From positions 168,959-232,958 of the forward strand of contig JANLIR010000002.1 of NCBI GenBank assembly GCA_024654025.1: a DNA stretch of 64,000 nucleotides, given 5' to 3'. A model generated the notes under the pieces. It saw only the letters and a program-made list of their open reading frames with translations, searched no databases and was not told the DNA's origin. This document shows, one piece after another, positions 3,075 through 33,815 of this stretch. Source of the DNA: Candidatus Wolfebacteria bacterium (GTDB taxonomy: Bacteria; Patescibacteriota; Minisyncoccia; UBA6257; UBA9933). The position numbers and the translations under genes were made by a program. Positions within the stretch are counted from its first letter, which is position 1. Each line of letters begins with the position of its first letter.

Positions 3075-4358
3075 ATGTATAATAATCGCCTAAAAATAGT
3101 TTTGTTCGGAGCCGGAGTTATTGCACTTATTTTAGTTGTTCTAAGTGTTTTTTGCGTAATTCCGATAACAAAAAATTGTTCAAAAACTTCCGTGTCCGGA
3201 AAATTAATTTTTTGGGGAGTTGACGATGTTTCCGCTTATCAAACCGTTATAGATAATTACAGCAAGTTTTATAATAGAAAAGTTCAAATTCAATACCAGC
3301 AAATCCCCGAAGCGGATTTTGAAAATACTTTTGTTCGGGCAGTGGCTAAAAATCAAGGGCCCGATATTTTAATGTTTCATAACTCCTGGCTTATAAAACA
3401 GGGCGATCTTTTAGCTCCGGCCACTGACGCGCAAATTTCTTTAGCAAATATTCGCCAGCTTTTCCCGCAGGTTGTTGAAAAAGATTTTACTTACCAAAGT
3501 AAGGTTTACGCGCTTCCTTTATATCTCGACACTCTCGCGCTTTTTTACAATAAAGATATTTTTAATGCTAACGCCGTTGTTTTTCCGCCGGCAAATTGGA
3601 GTGATTTTACGAATTTAGCAACGAGGCTTACGAAAAAACAAGCTAACGGCCAGATTTTACAATCCGGCGCGGCTATCGGCAGCTCTGATAAAAATATCGT
3701 AAACGCAACTGATGTTTTAAATACGTTAATGCTTCAATACGGTTCTTTAATAGTTGATCCATCTTTTATGCGAACTGATTTTAGCGGTAAAGCAACCAGC
3801 GCTTTTGATTTTTACACCGGCTTTGCCAAGCCAGCTAGCAGTAATTATGTTTGGAACCAAAATTTAGGAAACTCGTTTGATTTATTCAGCCAGGGGCAGG
3901 CGGCGATGATTTTCGGTTATGCTAACCAGATTTCATATCTCAAACAAAAAAATCCGCTTTTGAATTTCGAGGTGGCGTCTATGCCGCAGGCCGATCCTTC
4001 AAATCCTAAAAATTACGCCGCTTATTGGGGCTTGGCAGTTTCTTCTAAAAGCGCGAATTCCGAACTTGCCTGGAGTTTTATAAAATACCTGACAACTGAC
4101 CCGCAAAACTCTCTTACTTATCTTCAAGCGACAAAACGGCCGCCGGCTTTGAAAATTTTAATCAAACAATATCAGAATGATCCGGATTTAAATGTTTTTG
4201 CAAACCAAGCGCTTGCGGCAACTTCATGGTATCAGCCCGACTCTGACCAAACCAGCCAGATTTTTTCAAGCGCGGTCGAATCGGTTTTAAGCGGCCAGCT
4301 TACTTCTGGGCGCGCGCTGGAAAAAGCCGCTTCTCAAATAAATAATTTATTTAAATAA
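3075..4358 (+). CDS. Extracellular solute-binding protein (ABC-transporter family 1 SBP-like), orphan
   Basis: 427 aa with an N-terminal TM/signal anchor; sequence features resemble sugar-type substrate-binding proteins. No permease or ATPase genes adjacent. Confidence 0.5.
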   Translation: MYNNRLKIVLFGAGVIALILVVLSVFCVIPITKNCSKTSVSGKLIFWGVDDVSAYQTVIDNYSKFYNRKVQIQYQQIPEADFENTFVRAVAKNQGPDILMFHNSWLIKQGDLLAPATDAQISLANIRQLFPQVVEKDFTYQSKVYALPLYLDTLALFYNKDIFNANAVVFPPANWSDFTNLATRLTKKQANGQILQSGAAIGSSDKNIVNATDVLNTLMLQYGSLIVDPSFMRTDFSGKATSAFDFYTGFAKPASSNYVWNQNLGNSFDLFSQGQAAMIFGYANQISYLKQKNPLLNFEVASMPQADPSNPKNYAAYWGLAVSSKSANSELAWSFIKYLTTDPQNSLTYLQATKRPPALKILIKQYQNDPDLNVFANQALAATSWYQPDSDQTSQIFSSAVESVLSGQLTSGRALEKAASQINNLFK

Positions 4359-7564: not shown

Positions 7565-7649
7565 GTCCTCGTGGCGGAAATGGAATACGCGCAGCGCTTA
7601 GGACGCTGTCCCGCAAGGGTTGTGGGTTCGACTCCCACCGAGGACACCA
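7565..7649 (+). tRNA. tRNA-Leu (anticodon TAG), class II with long variable arm; CCA encoded
   Basis: Acceptor GTCCTCG/CGAGGAC; anticodon arm CAGCG-CTTAGGA-CGCTG; variable stem CCC-GCAA-GGG; T-arm GTGGG-TTCGACT-CCCAC; ACCA at the 3' end. Preceded by a TATAAT -10 element at about 7543. Confidence 0.8.
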
Positions 7650-7650
7650 A

Positions 7651-7686
7651 ACTATAAATCCCTTCGAGACCGAAGGGATTTATAGT
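7651..7686 (+). terminator. Perfect 16-bp hairpin immediately 3' of tRNA-Leu
   Basis: ACTATAAATCCCTTCG-AGAC-CGAAGGGATTTATAGT. No clean U-tract, so it may be a processing or structure element. Confidence 0.45.
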
Positions 7687-7809
7687 TTATATATCACAAG
7701 GGAGGAGAAGGGTATTTAAAAAAGCAAACTGCTTTGCTTTTTTAAAACCCCGGCTCTGGAGGAGTAATTTTCCATGTTTATTTATGAACGAAAAATTACG
7801 GGGGAAGAG

Positions 7810-7831: not shown

Positions 7832-8827
7832 TTATCCCCTTCTTCTTCCGTGAAATGTTTTGTGTATTTCTTTGAGTTCTTTATTTGTTAAATGCGTGTA
7901 AATTTGGGTTGTGGAAATATTGCTATGGCCTAAAAGTTCTTGCACAGACCTTAAATCCGCTCCTCCGATTAATAAATCAGTGGCAAAGCTATGCCGGAGC
8001 AAATGCGGGTGGATTTTTTGCGGTATCCCCGCTTTTCGGCCGTAAAAATCTATCAAGCGCTGAATTGCGCGAGGAATAATTCTCCCGATAACTTTCGGAT
8101 TTGCTTGCCCTGAGCTCATCGAGTCTGAGACTCTCAGAGTCGAATGACTTGTCGAACGGGTTGCTTTAGTTAAGCTTACAAACAGCGCTTCTTCGGCATC
8201 GGTTCGTTTTCCTAAATAATTTTTTATAGCTTTCTTGGCGGATTCGGATAAAAACACCACTCTTATTTTCCCGCCCTTGCCCCGCACGGAAATTTCTCCC
8301 CTATTCAAATCAAAATACCGGCTCAAAGAACATAATTCTGAAACGCGAAGCCCGGTTGAAAACAAAACTTCCAAAATCGCTTTGTCGCGAAGTCCTTTTA
8401 AATCGTTTGTTTTGGGCGCTGCCATAAGCCGTTCCAAATCCGAGTATTCCATTATATTGATTTGCCGGTTTGGAATTCTAGGAAGCTCGATTTTTTCCGA
8501 AGCTAAAACCCTGTAGTCGTTTTTCGCCAAAAATTTCAAAAAGTTTCTAAGCGCTATTATGTAGTAGCTTTGGGTTGTGCGTTTAAAGTTTTCTCCATCT
8601 CTGGGATTATGAAGCCGCGCCAGATAGATCCGAAAATCTCTTACGTTGTCAGCGGTGATATCGCCCTCGGATTTTATTTTGGCGAAATCAAAAAACTTCG
8701 TTAAATAGTGCTCATAATTTTCCCGCGTGTCTTTAGTCCTGCCTTTTTCAATCTCAAGATAATCAAGATAGTTTTTGAGGAGTTTGTTTATGTCAGCCAT
8801 AGCTTCGCAACCTGTAACTTGTAACAA
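7832..8827 (-). CDS. Tyrosine site-specific recombinase (XerC/XerD / phage-integrase family)
   Basis: 331 aa. N-terminal SAM-like core-binding domain; catalytic motifs LFSTGLRVSEL, HPHLLRHSFATDLL, LGHSNISTTQIYTH (R…HxxR…Y). About 25-aa insertion relative to canonical XerD before the HxxR box. Confidence 0.85.
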   Translation of the reverse strand: MLQVTGCEAMADINKLLKNYLDYLEIEKGRTKDTRENYEHYLTKFFDFAKIKSEGDITADNVRDFRIYLARLHNPRDGENFKRTTQSYYIIALRNFLKFLAKNDYRVLASEKIELPRIPNRQINIMEYSDLERLMAAPKTNDLKGLRDKAILEVLFSTGLRVSELCSLSRYFDLNRGEISVRGKGGKIRVVFLSESAKKAIKNYLGKRTDAEEALFVSLTKATRSTSHSTLRVSDSMSSGQANPKVIGRIIPRAIQRLIDFYGRKAGIPQKIHPHLLRHSFATDLLIGGADLRSVQELLGHSNISTTQIYTHLTNKELKEIHKTFHGRRRG

Positions 8828-16303: not shown

Positions 16304-16687
16304 TCAGAGATTTATATTCTTGTAATGAGAAATGATGGGGTTATTAGTGTTGTTTAGGGTTATAGCAATTAAATCAATTCGCCACCCCATTTCCTTATTT
16401 ATTAAGCCTTGATTAGCGCCTGAATATAAAGAGGCGGTTCTGGCTACTTTTTTAAGCTTAGAAGCAGTTAATTGATCCTCGGGTTTTAGGTTGAAATTGG
16501 TAGATTGTTGGAGGGTTTTGACTTCTATAAAAACAAGAGTTTTGTCGTGGTCTTTAGCTATGATATCTATCTCTCCCCACGGCTTCCTATAATTCCGCTC
16601 AATAATCCGGTATCTATTGTTGATTAAGCACTCGCAAGCCAAATCTTCGCCTAATTGCCCAGTTTTTTGTTTATCTGTTGAATCCAT
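16304..16687 (-). CDS. YraN-family (UPF0102) predicted endonuclease
   Basis: 127 aa; GEDLACECLINNRYRIIERNYRKPWGEIDIIAKD…LVFIEVKT matches the YraN/UPF0102 signature. Confidence 0.7.
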   Translation of the reverse strand: MDSTDKQKTGQLGEDLACECLINNRYRIIERNYRKPWGEIDIIAKDHDKTLVFIEVKTLQQSTNFNLKPEDQLTASKLKKVARTASLYSGANQGLINKEMGWRIDLIAITLNNTNNPIISHYKNINL

Positions 16688-17483: not shown

Positions 17484-18137
17484 CTAATAGGACGCGAAAA
17501 TACCCTTTGCCCACCCCCGGATTTTTAAAGATAGCCCAACATTACAGATGTAGATTTCAAAAGTTCCATAAGGAAGGCCCTCTTTTTTGGATTTTGTGGC
17601 TCTTTTTACTGAGAGTTTGAAAAACTGCTTTAAAGGGATGCCGGAAATTTCCGACCAGTATTTTTCTGTTCCCCGATGATCAAGGTGGGGATAGATATAA
17701 ATATGCCCCCGGAATTTCTGTTCCGGAACCTCACAAACATCCCTAAAAAAGGCCATCATTAACCTAACTATATTCGGGTCGCTGTTTGAGAACCGGACAA
17801 GGCCTTTTTGGGTTTTCCCACACCCTGCCCAATACAAAACCGAGCCAATTAGCCAAAGCTCACTTCTAGTTATTTTCTTTACCTGCTTTTGCGCTTGGTC
17901 GATAAGGTTTTCTCGTGTAGCTGTTTCCCGAGCCAGTCTGGTTGCGCGTCTTTTTTCCACTACCGAAAGCTTTACGGCGCGCTTTGATAGCGTTTTCTCC
18001 TGGTCTTTAGTTAGCGCGATGTTGCGGACCCATAAGCTCGCGCTACTTTTTGAAACGTTTAAGTTTTTCGCGATCTCGTTCAGAGAGTAACCATAAGCTC
18101 GGAGTTCTCGCGCTTTTTGTTTTTCAGCCTGCTTCAT
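17484..18137 (-). CDS. HTH plus LAGLIDADG-like domain protein (possible degenerate homing endonuclease / maturase-like)
   Basis: 217 aa. N-terminal sigma70-region-4-like HTH (LRAYGYSLNEIAKNLNVSKSSASLWVRNI). C-terminal segment SELWLIGSVLYWAGCGKTQ…VRLMMAFFRDV resembles a LAGLIDADG helix lacking the acidic residues. Confidence 0.35.
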   Translation of the reverse strand: MKQAEKQKARELRAYGYSLNEIAKNLNVSKSSASLWVRNIALTKDQEKTLSKRAVKLSVVEKRRATRLARETATRENLIDQAQKQVKKITRSELWLIGSVLYWAGCGKTQKGLVRFSNSDPNIVRLMMAFFRDVCEVPEQKFRGHIYIYPHLDHRGTEKYWSEISGIPLKQFFKLSVKRATKSKKEGLPYGTFEIYICNVGLSLKIRGWAKGIFASY

Positions 18138-18220
18138 AATCGAACTGATGAAGATATTTACTATGCTGAATATAGCATACAGGTTCGATTATTACAATAA
18201 AAAGAAGTTTGATTTCTGTG

Positions 18221-18290
18221 CGCGTTGAGGGGATTGAACCCCCGACCTGTCGCCTAAGGCGACCGTTCTAACCAACTGCTCCGACGCTTC
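18221..18290 (-). other. tRNA-like sequence, apparently degenerate (pseudo-tRNA)
   Basis: Minus strand: D-arm-like GAGCAGTTGGTTAGAAC, arm GTCGC-CTTAG-GCGAC with only a 5-nt loop, good T-arm GGGGG-TTCAATC-CCCTC. The 3' strand AACGCGC has no complementary 5' acceptor strand. Preceded by the hairpin CTCCGAC-CGAAGC-GTCGGAG. Confidence 0.3.
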
Positions 18291-18339
18291 GGTCGGAGCC
18301 CCGACTTCGTATTAGCGAACGTCGGAGAGCTAAAAATTG

Positions 18340-18568
18340 TGGACGCGCCCCGACTCGAACGGGGGACCTTCTCGGTGTCCCGCACAAAGTGGGTGCTATA
18401 GGATTCGAACCTATGACCTTCGCAGTGTAAATGCGACGCTCTAACCAACTGAGCTAAGCACCCACTTTAAGCGGGATTGCGATTTGTTTTTAAAAATTTT
18501 ATATCAAATTAAATTTTTAGACAAATCGGGAATAAACGAGACGCTCTAACCAACTGAGCTACGCGTCC
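18340..18568 (-). other. Interrupted tRNA-Val-like gene (outer halves) hosting a complete tRNA-Val in its anticodon-loop region
   Basis: 5' part (plus coords ~18535-18568): GGACGCG-TA-GCTC-AGTTGGTTAG-AGC-G-TCTCG-TTT… 3' part (18340-18384): …ACAC-CGAGA-AGGTC-CCCCG-TTCGAGT-CGGGG-CGCGTCC-A. Acceptor GGACGCG/CGCGTCC and anticodon stem TCTCG/CGAGA pair perfectly across a ~155-nt insert. Confidence 0.5.
18390..18463 (-). tRNA. tRNA-Val (anticodon TAC)
   Basis: GGGTGCT-TA-GCTC-AGTTGGTTAG-AGC-G-TCGCA-TTTACAC-TGCGA-AGGTC-ATAGG-TTCGAAT-CCTAT-AGCACCC-A. Flanked by imperfect inverted repeats CCCGCTTAAAGT / ACTTTGTGCGGG (18464-18475, 18379-18390). Confidence 0.8.
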
Positions 18569-18569
18569 A

Positions 18570-19184
18570 CTATTTGATTTTATCGTCTCCATTGCTATTC
18601 TCTTTGCTTAACGCATTAAAGACTTTTTTCAGAGCGTATTCAAAAAATATAACTCCTATTATTAAAAGCGTCAAAAACAGGGCGGCTCGTTTTAAATCGT
18701 GTTTAAGAATATCGGTTTGGTGCGCAAAAAGGTATCCAAGAGAAATTAATAAAGTTGTCCAGACAGCTGCGGCGGTTGCGCTGTATTTCAAAAGTTTTTT
18801 AAGCGAAATTTTTGAATAGCCGGCGCAGACTAAAACTACTCTGTTTAAATTCCACGCGAACTTGGAAATAAAAATCCAAAAACCGCTTCTTTTTTCCAGT
18901 TTCCGCAAAATCGGCGCGGTGTTTTCGGTTGTAAAAAATAAAAATTTTTTCCGTCCGCTTTCAACCAATCTTTTACCCAAGCTCCAATAAAAAAGATCGC
19001 ACAAGATAACCCCGATAAAAGCCGTTATTAGCGAAGGGAAAAAACCGACAGCTCCGCTTCTTACCAATACTCCGGTCAGTACCAGAATAATTTCTCCCTC
19101 TATGAACATTCCTATAAATATGGCCAAGTACGCGAGTATTCGGTGAACTTCGGAGAGATTTAAAAACAAGGATTCAATATGCAT
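18570..19184 (-). CDS. DedA-family (VTT/SNARE-associated domain) membrane protein
   Basis: 204 aa; multiple TM helices and conserved DedA segments (FIGMFIEGEIILVLTGVLV…GFWIFISKFAWNLNRVVLVCAGYSKISLKKLLKY). Its stop abuts the 5' end of the interrupted tRNA. Confidence 0.75.
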   Translation of the reverse strand: MHIESLFLNLSEVHRILAYLAIFIGMFIEGEIILVLTGVLVRSGAVGFFPSLITAFIGVILCDLFYWSLGKRLVESGRKKFLFFTTENTAPILRKLEKRSGFWIFISKFAWNLNRVVLVCAGYSKISLKKLLKYSATAAAVWTTLLISLGYLFAHQTDILKHDLKRAALFLTLLIIGVIFFEYALKKVFNALSKENSNGDDKIK

Positions 19185-19206
19185 CTCCTTATTATAGCAA
19201 AAAAAG

Positions 19207-19278
19207 TGCGAGTGGCAGGGATCGAACCTGCGACGGCCGTCTTATAAGGGCGGTGCTCTACCACTGAGCTACACTCGC
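19207..19278 (-). tRNA. tRNA with anticodon TAT (reads AUA; Ile-type)
   Basis: GCGAGTG-TA-GCTC-AGTGGTA-GAGC-A-CCGCC-CTTATAA-GACGG-CCGTC-GCAGG-TTCGATC-CCTGC-CACTCGC-A. One C·A mismatch in the anticodon stem. Anticodon UAU, not the usual bacterial CAU-lysidine. Confidence 0.55.
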
Positions 19279-19394
19279 AAATTATTTCATAACCAGCTGC
19301 CTGTCCGCCGCAGTCCGCCTATTGGCGGACGAAGGAGGAAGCTACACGCGCAAAGATAGCAATAAATATAGCAAAAACTTTTGTATAGTCAAAG

Positions 19395-20333
19395 CTACTT
19401 CAAAGTCGTAATCGGCCTGCTTTGGACAATATAAAATTTATTTTTTTCAAAAGCCCATTCAATGTCCTGCGGTTTTTTATAATGATTTTCTATATTTTGG
19501 CATATTTGTGCCAACTGTAAAATATATTTGTCGGCCAGTTTTTGTTTTTCTTGCTTGGCTTTCGGCACGATAGTTTCTTTAACTCCGCTTCCGTCTCGCA
19601 CAACCATCATTTCCTGCTTTGAAATGTTTGAGTCCAAAATATTTCTGTTTGTTTTGTGAATTACGTAAGTGTCAGGAGTGATTTTGCCCCCGACAATCGC
19701 TTCGCCCAATCCATACCCGGCCTCAATTACCATCTGGTCATAATCTTCGGTTACTGGGTGTACCGTAAAACAGATTCCGGAAATTTCCGATTGAATCATT
19801 TTCTGCACCACAACTGCCACTAAAACTTTTTGCTTATGAAGTTTTTTTTCAAACCGATAAAAAATCGCGCGTGGAGTAAATAGCGATGCCCAGCATTTTT
19901 TAACATTTTCCAAAAGATTTCCCTTTGAAGTATTTAAATAACTTTCCAATTCTCCGGCCCAGGAAGCGGTAGAAGAGTCCTCGGCTGTGGCTGAACTACG
20001 TACTGCCACATATTTTGTTTTCAGCTTGGCGAATTCAGTTAAAATTTCTTTGGCGATATCTTTGGGAAATTTAGCGTTTAAAATTAAGCTCCTGATTTCT
20101 TCAGAGACCTTTTCAATGGAGTTTATATCTTTGACTTTTACTTTGTGGAGCTGGGCTTCTATCTCAACGTCAATATCGGTTTCTTCCAAAAACCTATCAA
20201 AAGCCCCAGCCAAAACCACAAATCCGGGCGGCACCGGAATTCCGGATTTTATCATTTCGCCAAGCGAAGCTCCCTTGCCTCCGGCAATAGCAGCGTCTTT
20301 TTTTGAAAGTTTGTTAATTTTTTTAATAAACAT
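19395..20333 (-). CDS. PEP-utilising enzyme N-terminal ATP/nucleotide-binding domain protein (PPDK_N-like; PEP synthase / rifampin-phosphotransferase ATP-grasp module), stand-alone
   Basis: 312 aa. GGKGASLGEM and VAVRSSATAEDSSTASWAGELESYLN match the PEP synthase / PPDK N-terminal domain. No swivel or PEP-binding domain in the same ORF. Confidence 0.75.
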   Translation of the reverse strand: MFIKKINKLSKKDAAIAGGKGASLGEMIKSGIPVPPGFVVLAGAFDRFLEETDIDVEIEAQLHKVKVKDINSIEKVSEEIRSLILNAKFPKDIAKEILTEFAKLKTKYVAVRSSATAEDSSTASWAGELESYLNTSKGNLLENVKKCWASLFTPRAIFYRFEKKLHKQKVLVAVVVQKMIQSEISGICFTVHPVTEDYDQMVIEAGYGLGEAIVGGKITPDTYVIHKTNRNILDSNISKQEMMVVRDGSGVKETIVPKAKQEKQKLADKYILQLAQICQNIENHYKKPQDIEWAFEKNKFYIVQSRPITTLK

Positions 20334-31483: not shown

Positions 31484-31567
31484 GCGCAGGTGGCGGAGTG
31501 GTCAATCGCAACAGACTGTAAATCTGTCGCCCTTGTGGCTACGGGGGTTCGAATCCCTCCCTGCGCA
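31484..31567 (+). tRNA. tRNA-Tyr (anticodon GTA), class II
   Basis: Acceptor GCGCAGG/CCTGCGC; anticodon arm ACAGA-CTGTAAA-TCTGT; long variable arm; T-loop TTCGAAT. Confidence 0.8.
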
Positions 31568-31579
31568 CACTTTTTTGTC

Positions 31580-31760
31580 GCCGAAGTAGCTCAGTGGCAG
31601 AGCAACTGTTTTGCGTCAGCCCCGTTAGATATGCCGGGATAGCTCAGTGGTAGAGCAACTGTTTTGTAAACAGTAGGTCGTCGGTTCGAATCCGACTCTC
31701 GGCTCTCTCGGTGTATCTAACGGGGTAAATAGGTCGCGAGTTCGAATCTCGCCTTCGGCT
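31580..31760 (+). other. Interrupted tRNA-Thr-like gene (outer halves) hosting a complete tRNA-Thr(TGT)
   Basis: 5' part GCCGAAG-TA-GCTC-AGTGGCA-GAGC-A-ACTGT-TTTG… (31580-31614), nearly identical to the 5' half of the inner tRNA. 3' part …TAAAT-AGGTC-GCGAG-TTCGAAT-CTCGC-CTTCGGC-T (31726-31760). Acceptor GCCGAAG/CTTCGGC pairs perfectly across the insert; the 3' anticodon-stem strand is missing (ACAGT absent). Confidence 0.45.
31633..31704 (+). tRNA. tRNA-Thr (anticodon TGT)
   Basis: GCCGGGA-TA-GCTC-AGTGGTA-GAGC-A-ACTGT-TTTGTAA-ACAGT-AGGTC-GTCGG-TTCGAAT-CCGAC-TCTCGGC-T. Flanked by a perfect 12-bp inverted repeat CCCCGTTAGATA (31620-31631) / TATCTAACGGGG (31714-31725). Confidence 0.8.
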
Positions 31761-31770
31761 CTAGACAAAA

Positions 31771-31842
31771 GCCAGAGTAGTTCAGTGGTAGAACGCTTTC
31801 TTGGTAAGAAAGAGGTCGGGAGTCCGATTCTCCCCTCTGGCT
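31771..31842 (+). tRNA. tRNA-Thr (anticodon GGT)
   Basis: GCCAGAG-TA-GTTC-AGTGGTA-GAAC-G-CTTTC-TTGGTAA-GAAAG-AGGTC-GGGAG-TCCGATT-CTCCC-CTCTGGC-T. Unusual T-loop (TCCGATT, C at position 55). Confidence 0.75.
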
Positions 31843-32212: not shown

Positions 32213-32570
32213 CGAAATATTCGATAAAAATCTCGTATTTTGTCAATTGATAGCCCACCCTTTTTTTGCTATACTTCCGACGGAGCTCTGGTAGTGATTC
32301 TCGGATCAAATTATTTGCGAGGGGAGGATAAAAGTGCTTTAACTTCATTGTTAGGGTTGAATCCGCCCACCTGGCACTAGCCGGGATAATCCAACACCAG
32401 GGCTCCTTTTGCGCTTACGCTAACACGATACTAATATACTAATTTTACTAATGATACGAATTGGATACGAATTCGTATTTATTAGTATCATTCGAATGCA
32501 TTCGTCCTTCGACTTACTCAGGACGACCCTGAGTCGGTCGAATGGGTCGTATATTGGTATCACAATCACA

Positions 32571-33815
32571 ATGAGGCGTTTCTATTTTGATTACGCTGCT
32601 ACTACTCCGATTGACCCAGAGGTTTTAAAAGAAATAAATTCTAATTTAAGGAATAATTTTGGCAATCCCGGATCGCTCAATTTTTTCGGGCAAGCCGCAA
32701 TGGCAATGGTTGATAAATCGCGCGAAAAAATCGCCAACGCAATCAACGCTGATTTTCGGGAAATAATTTTTACCGGATCCGCGACGGAGGCAAACAATCT
32801 CGCACTCAGAGGAATACTAAAAAACGCCCGCCTGCGCCAAGGCTTCGGCGGGCAGGTAAAAACTAAAAGCAAAAAACCGAGAATAATTGTTTCAGCTATT
32901 GAACACGAATCTATTTTAGAAACTGCTAGAGATTTATCCGCCAGAGGCGGATCCGCCTTTGGCGGAGAAAAAGAAGGCGTGGAAATTATTTATTTGCCGG
33001 TTGATAAAAACGGCGTTGTGGATTTAAAGAAGTTAGAGAACGCATTGAACGAAAGAACGATTTTGGTTTCAATAATGTACGCGAACAACGAAACCGGAGT
33101 CATACAACCAATAGCAGAAATCGCCGAAATTATAAAAAAATTCAAAGAAAAAAAATACCCTAAACCCTACACCCTAAACCCTACACCCTATTTTCACACC
33201 GACGCTGTCCAGGCGTTCCAATTTCTGGATTGCAATATTAAAAACTTAGGGGTAGATTTAATGACTTTATCGGCTCATAAAATTTACGGACCAAAAGGAA
33301 TTGGCGCGTTATACGTACGCAACTCACAACTCACAACCTACAACTTACAACCAATAATTACTGGAGGAAAACAAGAATTTGGATTAAGATCCGGCACTGA
33401 AAACGTTGCCATGATAGCTGGTTTCGCCAAAGCAATTGAATTGGCAAATGAGAAACGGGAAAAAGAGAAAAAAAGAATTTTTTTGCTGGCGCAATATTTT
33501 TTTAAAGAAATAAAAAAGATTGTTCCGAGCGCCCAACTAAACGCAGGGAAGGCCAAGCGGCTGCCTAATATTTTAAATATCGCTTTCTCGGGTTATGACG
33601 CGGAGAGTTTGCTGATAAAATTTGACCTTAACGGCACTGCTGTTTCCCGAGGCTCGGCGTGTATGGCGCGTTCGTCTCAGTCGTCTTATGTATTAAAAGA
33701 AATGGGACTAAGTGAAAGCGAGCAGCGCTCCAGTTTGCGGTTTAGCTTCGGCAGATTTACAACAAAAGAAGAAATGTCTAAAGCCTTGAAAATTATAAAA
33801 AAAACATTAAAATAG
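32571..33815 (+). CDS. Cysteine desulfurase (IscS/NifS family)
   Basis: Class V aminotransferase fold: SATEANNLALRG, HTDAVQAF, SAHKIYGPKGIGALYV, GLRSGTEN, AVSRGSAC (catalytic Cys). Start chosen at 32571 (MRRFYFDY); the tracked ORF starts at 32451. Contains two in-frame simple-repeat inserts. Confidence 0.85.
   Translation: MRRFYFDYAATTPIDPEVLKEINSNLRNNFGNPGSLNFFGQAAMAMVDKSREKIANAINADFREIIFTGSATEANNLALRGILKNARLRQGFGGQVKTKSKKPRIIVSAIEHESILETARDLSARGGSAFGGEKEGVEIIYLPVDKNGVVDLKKLENALNERTILVSIMYANNETGVIQPIAEIAEIIKKFKEKKYPKPYTLNPTPYFHTDAVQAFQFLDCNIKNLGVDLMTLSAHKIYGPKGIGALYVRNSQLTTYNLQPIITGGKQEFGLRSGTENVAMIAGFAKAIELANEKREKEKKRIFLLAQYFFKEIKKIVPSAQLNAGKAKRLPNILNIAFSGYDAESLLIKFDLNGTAVSRGSACMARSSQSSYVLKEMGLSESEQRSSLRFSFGRFTTKEEMSKALKIIKKTLK
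33157..33190 (+). repeat. In-frame 14-nt tandem repeat (ACCCTAAACCCTAC x 2.4) inside the cysteine desulfurase gene
   Basis: Encodes KPYTLNPTPY; contains the telomere-like heptamer CCCTAAA. Confidence 0.8.
33321..33352 (+). repeat. In-frame heptanucleotide repeat (AACTCAC/AACCTAC/AACTTAC x 4.5) inside the cysteine desulfurase gene
   Basis: Encodes NSQLTTYNLQP immediately before the conserved GG…GLRSGTEN box. Confidence 0.8.

Follow-up and report, generated by a model that had tools for sequence, protein, structure and literature searches.

A tRNA-Val gene nested in the anticodon loop of another tRNA-Val gene in a Candidatus Wolfebacteria genome: a probable self-complementing insertion

What becomes of a tRNA gene when a second, complete tRNA gene of the same specificity sits inside its anticodon loop? 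The question is raised by a locus in a 64,000-nt stretch of DNA from a Candidatus Wolfebacteria bacterium (GenBank assembly GCA_024654025.1, contig JANLIR010000002.1, positions 168,959–232,958 of the forward strand), which is called the window below. Since it encodes transfer-messenger RNA (tmRNA), parAB, gyrA, recA and ftsK, the window belongs to a bacterial chromosome. One protein encoded near the nest has 100% identity to a protein of a Candidatus Wolfebacteria metagenome-assembled genome. On its minus strand, from 18568 to 18340, direct reading of the sequence revealed an outer tRNA-Val(TAC) gene whose anticodon loop is split by a 155-nt insert (18533–18379), and this insert holds an inner tRNA-Val(TAC) gene. 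A preliminary description of the locus had called the insert intron-like, with the outer tRNA reconstituted from its halves. We favor another answer, to which we assign a probability of about 0.6: at its core, the locus would be a pseudogene holding a mobile, self-complementing DNA cassette, not a gene with a spliced intron. Comparison with related loci shows precise insertion into a live cognate gene, transfer of one cassette between alleles, serial nesting and progressive decay of the outer copies.

The structural claims of the preliminary description were borne out. The two outer halves, which it had placed about 155 nt apart, are separated by exactly that length, and the acceptor stem (7/7) and the anticodon stem (5/5) pair across the insert; the T stem is likewise complete (5/5). 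The outer 5′ part (GGACGCG-TA-GCTC-AGTTGGTTAG-AGC-G-TCTCG-TTT) terminates in ...TCTCGTTT and matched positions 1–36 of a tRNA-Val profile in nhmmer (E=4e-9), and the 3′ part (ACAC-CGAGA-AGGTC-CCCCG-TTCGAGT-CGGGG-CGCGTCC-A) starts with ACACCGAGA..., closes the outer tRNA with CGCGTCCA and matched positions 36–75 (E=1e-3). The boundary of the insert is ambiguous by one A, since A35 at 18533 can be assigned to the outer 5′ part or to the insert: with slashes marking the junctions, it can be drawn as TTT/A...GGG/ACAC (34/35) or as TTTA/...GGGA/CAC (35/36). The insert consists of a 70-nt 5′ module, the complete inner tRNA and an 11-nt trailer, so that its non-tRNA part amounts to 81 nt. In the 5′ module a conserved stem (CGATTTGT/ACAAATCG, 18480–18530) encloses a variable AT-rich loop, and the final 12 nt pair with the discriminator and the trailer. 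The inner gene, which the preliminary description had already recognized as a full tRNA-Val(TAC), was called tRNA-Val(tac) by ARAGORN and matched the Rfam model RF00005 over its full length (model 1–71) with 77.5 bits against a gathering score of 29. Its acceptor stem, described before as extended by inverted repeats, is lengthened by CCCGCTTAAAGT/ACTTTGTGCGGG over 12 positions (10 Watson–Crick pairs, 1 G·T pair and 1 mismatch). Besides this internal repeat around the tRNA, the tRNA-Val cassette (type A) has a terminal repeat of only 4 bp, CCCG/CGGG. Sequence inspection found no target-site duplication at this anticodon insertion, nor at that of a tRNA-Thr gene described below. Inner and outer tRNAs have a 22-nt D-arm sequence, TAGCTCAGTTGGTTAGAGCGTC, in common.

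The minimum free energy (MFE) fold of the locus is a nested double cloverleaf of −88.8 kcal/mol (z = −6.9), and 0/200 shuffled sequences were as stable. In both the MFE and the centroid structure, the anticodon stem leads through an internal loop of 8 nt and 3 nt into the hairpins, and the ends of the insert pair into a helix stacked on the anticodon stem. A VTT/DedA membrane protein gene lies upstream, with its stop codon 1 nt from the outer tRNA, and a promoter-like match (TTGACG-17-TATATT) lies inside the end of this gene. The 5′ module of the window also contains a sigma-70-like TTGTCT-17-TAAAAT; as a promoter it was set aside, being a 9/12 consensus match without conservation in the related loci L020 and L021. 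The tRNA genes of the window and of the related loci mostly lack an encoded CCA, and the discriminator is usually followed by C.

The outer gene has an uninterrupted counterpart. We compared the window with loci of relatives (labeled L001–L046), fetched in part via homologues of the VTT protein. In L004 (VTT 74% identical), an uninterrupted tRNA-Val gene directly follows the same VTT/DedA gene, and L009, an independent JGI assembly, reproduces this arrangement. In-silico removal of the insert from the window yielded a canonical 74-nt tRNA-Val(TAC) that is 73/74 identical to the L004 gene: the 5′ part is identical to L004:898–932, and the 3′ part has a single difference in the variable loop (T vs C). 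As judged from this alignment, the match of the restored outer tRNA is far beyond chance. Because an empty-site allele exists in L004/L009, the outer halves are to be read as remnants of an insertion into a live gene and not of a duplication. An earlier scenario under which the outer halves are dead remnants of a duplication thus came closest to the evidence in the remnants being dead, and failed in their being a duplication.

The cassette itself was found in a second host. In L006 (VTT 96%, an ENA assembly), a cassette 153/155 identical to that of the window occupies the same anticodon position of a different tRNA-Val allele (GCGCGTT...AACGCGC, the type also seen in the Val-3 relic of the window; Table 1), and the VTT gene beside it is only 89.6% identical in DNA to that of the window. 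Since this near-identical copy sits in a different allele, the cassette is a discrete unit that recently occupied two host alleles. The L006 host tRNA carries a 40-nt D-stem insert and a 27:43 mismatch. The inner tRNA of the window, Val-2, recurs in L006 and, with one variable-loop substitution, in L007, which has lost the outer 5′ half together with the 5′ module and kept the inner tRNA, trailer and outer 3′ half. The junction GCACCCACTTTGTGCGGGACAC is also found in L004/L009, L006 and L007/L010. In L004 the "outer"-type copy is intact, and the "inner"-type copy is broken (acceptor strand lost, two D-arm inserts) and abuts the same trailer/host junction; the L004 relics bear stem-breaking changes. 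To judge from these sequences, the dead copy in a nest can be the outer or the inner one. Every locus having tRNA-Val retains exactly one uninterrupted tRNA-Val(TAC). There are at least four tRNA-Val(TAC) alleles among genomes whose VTT is 74–96% identical to that of the window, and alleles of one locus differ strongly in their stems between close relatives.

A scan of GTDB for the 3′ junction gave 0 matches, and a metagenome scan for it returned just two contigs, already known or equivalent. Four queries, namely the type A module, the repeat with cargo of a second cassette type (type B), the inner tRNA body and the D-stem insert, had 0 matches each in viral contigs, and a phage or plasmid origin was rejected on these scans. 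Co-conversion of the host flanks with the cassette was considered and dropped, as the markers were too few and contradictory.

The preliminary description had also suggested looking in other genomes for tRNA genes interrupted by hairpin-embedded tRNAs, and such genes were found in L006, L020, L021 and L015. The synteny of VTT and tRNA-Val(TAC) extends over Paceibacteria and Wolfebacteria metagenome-assembled genomes in GTDB, and the tRNA-Val profile detected half-tRNAs adjoining an intact gene at several of these loci. In L020 and L021 (VTT 38–40% identical) this 5′ module recurs at an identical host position, and the cargo tRNA-Val alleles are different ones. In L006, L020 and L021 the stem and the single-stranded parts of the 5′ module are conserved and its loop is variable, and the 3′ module of L021, CCATGCGCGGG, has two compensatory pair changes that keep the pairing around the cargo. 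The nest of L021 has three levels, and decay grows outward: the innermost tRNA, set between the arms of another inverted repeat, CCCCGTTAGATTT/AAATCTAACGGGG, is intact, the middle one has a badly decayed 3′ half, and in the outermost the stems are not complementary and both D-loop and T-loop carry inserts. In L015 one tRNA-Val holds, in its D-loop, a second tRNA-Val with a flanking 15-bp repeat. Upstream of an intact gene, L022 and L008 show 5′ relics bearing D-arm inserts, and L025 has a relic holding solo hairpins; 5′ relics are kept more often than 3′ relics. Pairing between leader and trailer contiguous with the acceptor stem covers 12–15 positions in cargo tRNAs vs ≤9 (mostly ≤5) in other tRNAs, and was therefore rejected as a general tRNA trait of these genomes, being specific to cargo tRNAs.

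Under the proposed replacement mechanism, insertion would destroy the host gene, harmlessly so because the cassette supplies the same isoacceptor; as the cassette must bring a cognate replacement, only cognate-in-cognate events would survive. The inner tRNA would be the working gene; its transcription probably starts at the old promoter upstream and runs across the outer 5′ half, RNase P and 3′ processing would then free it, and CCA, which is not encoded, would be added after that. The outer halves would be a young pseudogene, given their decay elsewhere. In older nests this decay takes the form of hairpins gained in the T-loop and at D-stem 12/13, of deletions and of substitutions that break stems, and re-invasion can build up to three levels. 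With lower confidence, we suggest that the cassette spreads by recombination between tRNA-Val alleles, within and between strains, through the near-invariant flanking tRNA segments. These could act as homology arms (~24 nt 5′ and 12 nt 3′ of the cassette), resembling intron homing, and a double-strand break made by a tRNA-gene-associated endonuclease with a helix-turn-helix (HTH) and a LAGLIDADG domain may stimulate the process.

The window contains a second nest. An outer tRNA-Thr(TGT) gene is split at TTTG/TAA around a complete inner tRNA-Thr(TGT) at 31633–31704. The insert consists of CGTCAG-CCCCGTTAGAT-AT, the complete tRNA-Thr(TGT) and then CTCTCGGTGT-ATCTAACGGGG, so that the inner gene is flanked by the 11-bp inverted repeat CCCCGTTAGAT/ATCTAACGGGG; the fold of this nest has z = −6.75. 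The outer tRNA-Thr has a 3-nt deletion at the junction of anticodon stem and variable loop, and its joined halves give an aberrant 69-nt molecule. L046 has the same tRNA-Thr relic with the same 3-nt deletion and, in addition, a ~90-nt T-loop insert. The interior of its cassette differs, with the repeat CCCCGCACCTTTCC/GGAAAGGTGCGGGG and another tRNA-Thr allele; because the same relic thus holds a different interior, cargo turns over inside an existing nest. As a separate observation, a sub-threshold Rfam match to YrlA (Y RNA-like) at 31706–31824 (+), of 33.9 bits vs a gathering score of 69, reaches from the trailer of the Thr cassette across the 3′ half of the outer tRNA-Thr into tRNA-Thr(GGT), and is most likely caused by these tRNA-like pieces.

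Two further tRNA relics were recognized in the window. The older tRNA-Val relic (Val-3) has a 49-nt double-hairpin insert (18279–18327) at D-stem position 12/13, a damaged anticodon arm with a 5-nt loop and an intact T arm, and ends in AACGCGC-A. It gave a weak Rfam tRNA match (22.2 bits at 18219–18281), and both the Val-3 host in L006 and the L007 relic show exactly the same T arm and 3′ acceptor end. The insert family of Val-3 also occurs in a tRNA-Ile relic of L006. The tRNA-Ile relic of the window is a 5′ part only, GCGCGTG-TA-GCT (19351–19340) followed by a 40-nt GC-rich hairpin (19339–19300) at D-stem position 12/13, CAGCTGGTTA (19299–19290) and TGAAATAATTT. Its intact version (GCGCGTG...CACGCGCA) is present in L001, the same relic with the other insert family in L006, and a similar Ile relic in L022.

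These relics brought to light small hairpin elements with fixed targets. Two unrelated hairpin families lie exactly between D-stem nt 12 and 13 (GCT/CAG), and because the window and L006 have them exchanged between their Ile and Val relics, we regard them as mobile and site-specific. Among the loci sampled, cargo-less hairpin inserts are confined to relic copies, and the D-stem inserts are flush, perfect palindromes without bulged splice sites. A third family resembles miniature inverted-repeat transposable elements (MITEs): it has 11–14-bp terminal inverted repeats (CCCYGTTAGA...TCTAACRGGG), inserts at tRNA 3′ ends and duplicates the last 4 tRNA nt (CGCA in L006; TCCA in L020, with two tandem copies). 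Empty sites for the L006 element are found in L001 and the window. The CCCYGTTAGA repeat also flanks the cargo tRNA-Thr of the window and a cargo tRNA-Val of L021, and the Thr cassette and its cargo-less relatives have clear 11–14-bp repeats of the form CCCYGTTAGA.../...TCTAACRGGG. Within the window, the insert families turned up in tRNA relics alone, save a 29-nt palindrome in an open reading frame (ORF). This palindrome, CCGCCAGAGGCGGATCCGCCTTTGGCGG (28–29 nt), lies at 32938–32965 (+), in frame (SARGGSAFGG) within ORF 32451–33815, which from its translation we take to be cysteine-desulfurase-like; the same element occurs in the T-loop of a tRNA relic (L021:3436–3464) and at L021:159–180. In its in-frame behavior it resembles, by analogy, the Rickettsia palindromic elements.

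The candidate endonuclease is a 217-aa protein with the alpha/beta fold by which LAGLIDADG proteins are recognized, encoded next to the tRNA-Val nest. The catalytic Glu (LYWAEG/LYWGEG-type) is present in 40/45 aligned members of its family, and the family adjoins tRNA genes in every context sampled. Relatives adjoin tRNA-Val(TAC) in four different contexts and both orientations; other neighbors are tRNA-Phe (L044), tRNA-Ile (L023) and a novel tRNA-Tyr allele (L046). A 205-aa member in L046 (2019–2636), with the catalytic Glu kept, lies between a conserved 151-aa gene and a tRNA cluster and overlaps by a few bases a tRNA-Tyr (L046:2631–2715) whose allele is wholly unlike the tRNA-Tyr of the window (31484–31568); on this sequence comparison, the gene has arrived together with the different tRNA-Tyr allele. 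L023 has two paralogues, at 1441–2037 (−) and 3288–3941 (+), one by tRNA-Ile(TAT) and one by tRNA-Val(TAC). In L044, two tandem tRNA-Phe(GAA) genes (2263–2421) lie directly upstream of a distant homologue (30% identical), the first of them having an unusual sequence and an encoded CCA. The 5′ untranslated region of the 217-aa gene (18138–18190, −) forms a conserved hairpin, AATCGAAC...GTTCGATT, which ends at the ATG; it has an inner palindrome (TATGCT..AGCATA) and a 3′ arm resembling a tRNA T-arm, and equivalent pairing was seen upstream of the homologues in L001, L031, L034 and L044. By analogy with other homing-endonuclease genes, this hairpin may serve translational control.

A free-standing 143-aa endonuclease gene lies between the HTH-LAGLIDADG gene and the UPF0102/YraN gene. 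It is conserved beside YraN in L001, L003, L004, L007, L011, L017, L019 and L031, and since L017 and L019 have no nearby tRNA-Val, its link to the nest is doubtful. The window also encodes ComEC, RecA and RuvA, in line with the proposed spread by recombination. A tyrosine recombinase with Phage_integrase and SAM-like domains (7832–8827, −) lies beside tRNA-Leu(TAG) (7565–7649, +) and could be XerC/D or an island integrase; a weak ar14-like Rfam match was noted at 7652–7785. No transposase genes are present in the 64-kb window, where this tyrosine recombinase is the sole recombinase.

Table 1 Coordinates of the tRNA nests, relics and neighboring genes (positions in the window, or in the locus named)
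Feature	Position	Strand	Description
Outer tRNA-Val, Val-1, 5′ part	18534–18568	−	Acceptor 5′ strand, D arm, anticodon-stem 5′ strand, loop nt 32–34
Cassette 5′ module, 70 nt	18464–18533	−	ATTCCCG, stem CGATTTGT/ACAAATCG, then CAATCCCGCTTAAAGT
Inner (cargo) tRNA-Val(TAC), Val-2	18390–18463	−	Complete; ARAGORN, Rfam
Cassette 3′ module	18379–18389	−	CTTTGTGCGGG; pairs with end of 5′ module
Outer tRNA-Val, Val-1, 3′ part	18340–18378	−	Loop nt 35/36–38, anticodon-stem 3′ strand, variable loop, T arm, acceptor 3′ strand, discriminator A
Second nest, tRNA-Thr(TGT)	31580–31760	+	Outer 5′ part 31580–31613, 3′ part 31726–31760; fragments found by nhmmer
Older tRNA-Val relic, Val-3	18219–18332	−	TA-GCT, 49-nt double-hairpin insert, then CAGTTGGTTAGAAC; 5′ acceptor strand missing
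tRNA-Ile(TAT) locus with relic	19206–19351	−	Relic 19351–19279; intact, different tRNA-Ile(TAT) 19278–19206
MITE-like copies	L006:434–539; L020:3338–3555; L003:2826–2914		
HTH-LAGLIDADG gene, 217 aa	17484–18137	−	N-terminal HTH and single LAGLIDADG-fold domain; immediately 3′ of the tRNA-Val locus
Free-standing LAGLIDADG_1 endonuclease, 143 aa	16768–17199	+	Pfam PF00961, E=8e-9
UPF0102/YraN	16304–16687		Nuclease-fold protein widespread in bacteria, not EndA

Several observations weigh against a replacement cassette in a dead host gene. That the inner copy is functional and the outer one dead is read from sequence. The outer halves in the window are still perfect, which fits a very recent insertion and equally fits selection, and both the Val and the Thr insert can be drawn with an upstream exon ending in U34 and an insert ending in G, as in group I introns. 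The 5′ module is ~95% conserved between genomes whose proteins are ~40% identical, even beside dead cargo in L021, and must for this reason have a function. The outer tRNA-Thr relic shows 2/69 differences between the window and L046, where nearby spacers are unalignable; such slow divergence may point to constraint, to gene conversion or to the locus having been exchanged recently, as far as the two sequences tell. No enzyme was found for the primary insertion. As to the proposed spread, the 217-aa copy of the window and its four closest homologues have Gly in place of the catalytic Glu (AGCGK/AGGGK), and because this Glu of LYWAEGxKT is lost, the copy of the window is probably inactive. The nest loci L015, L020, L021, L022 and L025 have no HTH-LAGLIDADG gene within 2.5 kb, and since co-occurrence with nests is not strict, the link to the endonuclease is circumstantial.

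Some of these points would be explained if the insert were a genuine intron, whose transcript yields the inner tRNA while the outer halves are ligated, through self-splicing or some novel protein pathway, into a second functional tRNA-Val and the D-stem and T-loop hairpins are further introns. The perfect outer halves of the window, the slow divergence of the Thr relic halves, the conserved 5′ module, the helix that the insert ends stack on the anticodon stem and boundaries drawable as U/...G/ all agree with it. So does the site, since 34/35 and 35/36 are sites of bacterial tRNA group I introns, 35/36 being typical of Patescibacteria (PMC13011429). The U at the last exon nt and the G at the last insert nt fit TTT/A...GGG/A (Val) and TTT/G...GGG/G (Thr), not the 35/36 reading. 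However, only 81 nt of non-tRNA sequence are available for any catalytic core; outer copies are truncated, deleted or mismatched in L006, L007, L021, L046 and the Thr nest of the window; the D-stem inserts lack bulged splice sites; and exactly one uninterrupted copy is always present. Rfam scans found no group I intron or other ribozyme at E≤10 over 17800–19500 and no RF00028 match at E≤1 over the whole window, and on these scans such a ribozyme was rejected. A bulge-helix-bulge (BHB) intron was rejected because the fold lacks the two 3-nt bulges and 4-bp helix, the junction being the 8-nt/3-nt internal loop described above, and ARAGORN made no call on the interrupted outer gene, even in intron mode. 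The preliminary description had proposed a check for RtcB or splicing-endonuclease genes: in a scan of 38 ORFs, confined to the window, neither RtcB nor EndA came up. The scan included each of the 35 distinct ORFs of ≥200 aa and five that are shorter, and covered the range of 180–200 aa in part. With no ribozyme, no BHB motif and outer copies decaying in relatives, the intron-like character and the reconstituted outer tRNA did not hold up, and we consider a genuine intron improbable. Removal at the RNA level could also follow a new bacterial pathway that acts on all anticodon, D-stem 12/13 and T-loop hairpins and leaves the outer tRNAs functional, by cleavage at flush helix ends and ligation or through a minimal ribozyme around the 5′ module. 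If true, this would be a new class of bacterial tRNA intron that encodes a tRNA, with two tRNA-Val per transcript; we rate it as quite improbable.

How the cassette moved is a separate matter. Here the chief alternative is that a dedicated transposase acts on hairpin targets, which is possible though considerably less probable than not. The cassette would then be a non-autonomous foldback or hairpin transposon, moved by a transposase that targets tRNA loops, again with a dead outer and a functional inner copy. Several small palindromic families in these genomes strike tRNA genes at fixed sites: two unrelated ones at D-stem 12/13, exchanged between Ile and Val relics, and the MITE with its 4-bp duplication of the tRNA 3′ end and its empty site in L001 and the window, whose repeat motif flanks cargo tRNA-Thr (window) and cargo tRNA-Val (L021). 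Solo hairpins with the same repeats exist (L025, L006), cassettes with shared end modules have different cargo, and one cassette is known from two host alleles at 153/155 identity along with an empty site in L004/L009, as expected of a transposon; cognate-in-cognate nests would be the sole survivors of many lethal insertions. Yet the type A cassette shows no target duplication and only the 4-bp CCCG/CGGG repeat, the 64-kb window holds a tyrosine recombinase and no transposase, and the position shared by all four type A cassettes in tRNA-Val is equally explained by descent and recombination. Anticodon loops of tRNA genes are also classic attachment (att) sites, and the nest could be the scar of an integrase-mediated event in which a larger tRNA-carrying element entered the anticodon loop and was reduced to 155 nt. 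The region 3′ of tRNA-Val does vary, holding the HTH-LAGLIDADG gene or an unrelated island, and archaea offer a precedent in a tRNA-Thr fragment beside a recombinase-bearing mobile element (PMC3293823). But the tRNA segment has no flanking direct repeat (the shared core is ≤1 nt), the occurrence of the same 155-nt unit in two hosts implies that this unit is what moves, integrase genes are absent within 9 kb (a tyrosine recombinase beside tRNA-Leu, ~9.5 kb off, comes nearest) and the modules have no matches in viral contigs, which makes such a scar very improbable. An assembly or binning artefact, in which a chimeric join formed at the D-arm sequence TAGCTCAGTTGGTTAGAGCGTC shared by inner and outer tRNAs, has a negligible probability. 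Joining at a common k-mer produces chimeric sequences and does not leave a precise nest in which both halves are kept, and the cassette or its junctions recur in independent assemblies from other samples and pipelines (L006, L007/L010, L004/L009, L020, L021). Because the same cassette is present in L006, related nests in L020/L021 and the L004 arrangement in L009, the assembly error that had been named as an earlier alternative is excluded.

The replacement cassette shares features with several known systems. Rickettsia palindromic elements, mitochondrial GC clusters, double-hairpin elements and bacterial MITEs are short hairpin repeats inside genes, and the inserts described here are like them in occurring in both RNA genes and in-frame protein genes, in forming several families and in leaving empty and filled sites. 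Unlike them, some of the present families have strict tRNA targets (D-stem 12/13, tRNA 3′ end), and we know of no palindromic mini-element with tRNA cargo or in a cognate anticodon. Phage T4 SegB is a free-standing homing endonuclease in a tRNA gene cluster; as with SegB, the endonuclease gene lies beside tRNA genes and could bias the inheritance of adjacent tRNA alleles. It differs in having an HTH and a single LAGLIDADG domain instead of GIY-YIG, in the missing catalytic Glu of the window copy and in not strictly co-occurring with nests.

Among introns, the closest comparison is with the group I introns of Patescibacteria, bona fide ribozymes at position 35/36 of tRNA-Asn, tRNA-Asp and others (Nakagawa et al. 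2026, PMC13011429); nested tRNAs are not mentioned in that paper. The cassette occurs in the same phylum and at the anticodon site, is precise without duplication, may have U/G ends and is predicted to spread in a homing-like manner via flanking exon homology. In contrast to these introns, it lacks a ribozyme core, has only 81 nt that are not tRNA and brings along a complete cognate tRNA, its outer copies decay, and its neutrality would come from a spare gene and not from splicing. Elements that integrate into tRNA genes (phages, integrative and conjugative elements, pNOB8-type elements and the Caldiarchaeum model of a tRNA-Thr fragment and mobile element; Sugahara et al. 2012, PMC3293823) likewise disrupt a tRNA gene and repair it with a copy of their own, leave tRNA fragments beside the intact gene and strike the same locus repeatedly. 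Here, however, a whole tRNA is supplied and not a 3′ part, the element has 155 nt with no integrase and no att-type direct repeat, and the new gene lies inside the old one, bracketed by its halves. In Archaea and Cyanidioschyzon, multi-intron, split and permuted tRNA genes have BHB introns in the D arm, the anticodon arm and the T arm, for which a role of mobile elements has been proposed (PMC4090602, PMC3728597). The present loci are similar in that D arm, anticodon loop and T loop of one gene can all carry inserts, and differ in that the host is a bacterium, BHB motifs are absent, no splicing endonuclease was found among the scanned window ORFs, the interrupted copies look dead and an intact copy is always present.

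In agreement with the preliminary description, which knew of no such arrangement in bacteria, our full-text literature searches for nested or interrupted tRNA-in-tRNA genes found nothing comparable and none in bacteria. As far as the sequences allow it to be reconstructed, a self-complementing, tRNA-carrying insertion in a cognate tRNA gene, recurring as a "Russian-doll" series of replacements, is thus without a published description that we could find. If the replacement reading is true, it would add a third way for selfish DNA to sit harmlessly in an essential RNA gene, through a whole spare gene, beside self-splicing (introns) and a carried replacement fragment (integrating elements). Surveys of tRNA genes in genomes of the Candidate Phyla Radiation (CPR) should tell nested relics from true introns. 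The several tRNA-targeting mini-elements with exact target sites and the widespread tRNA-adjacent HTH-LAGLIDADG family defined here are candidates for new sequence-specific nucleases and for gene-drive-like tRNA turnover in ultra-small genomes. Replacement of this kind would explain the tRNA fragments and odd "introns" in annotations of Patescibacteria, as well as the striking differences between the tRNA alleles that close CPR relatives have at one locus.

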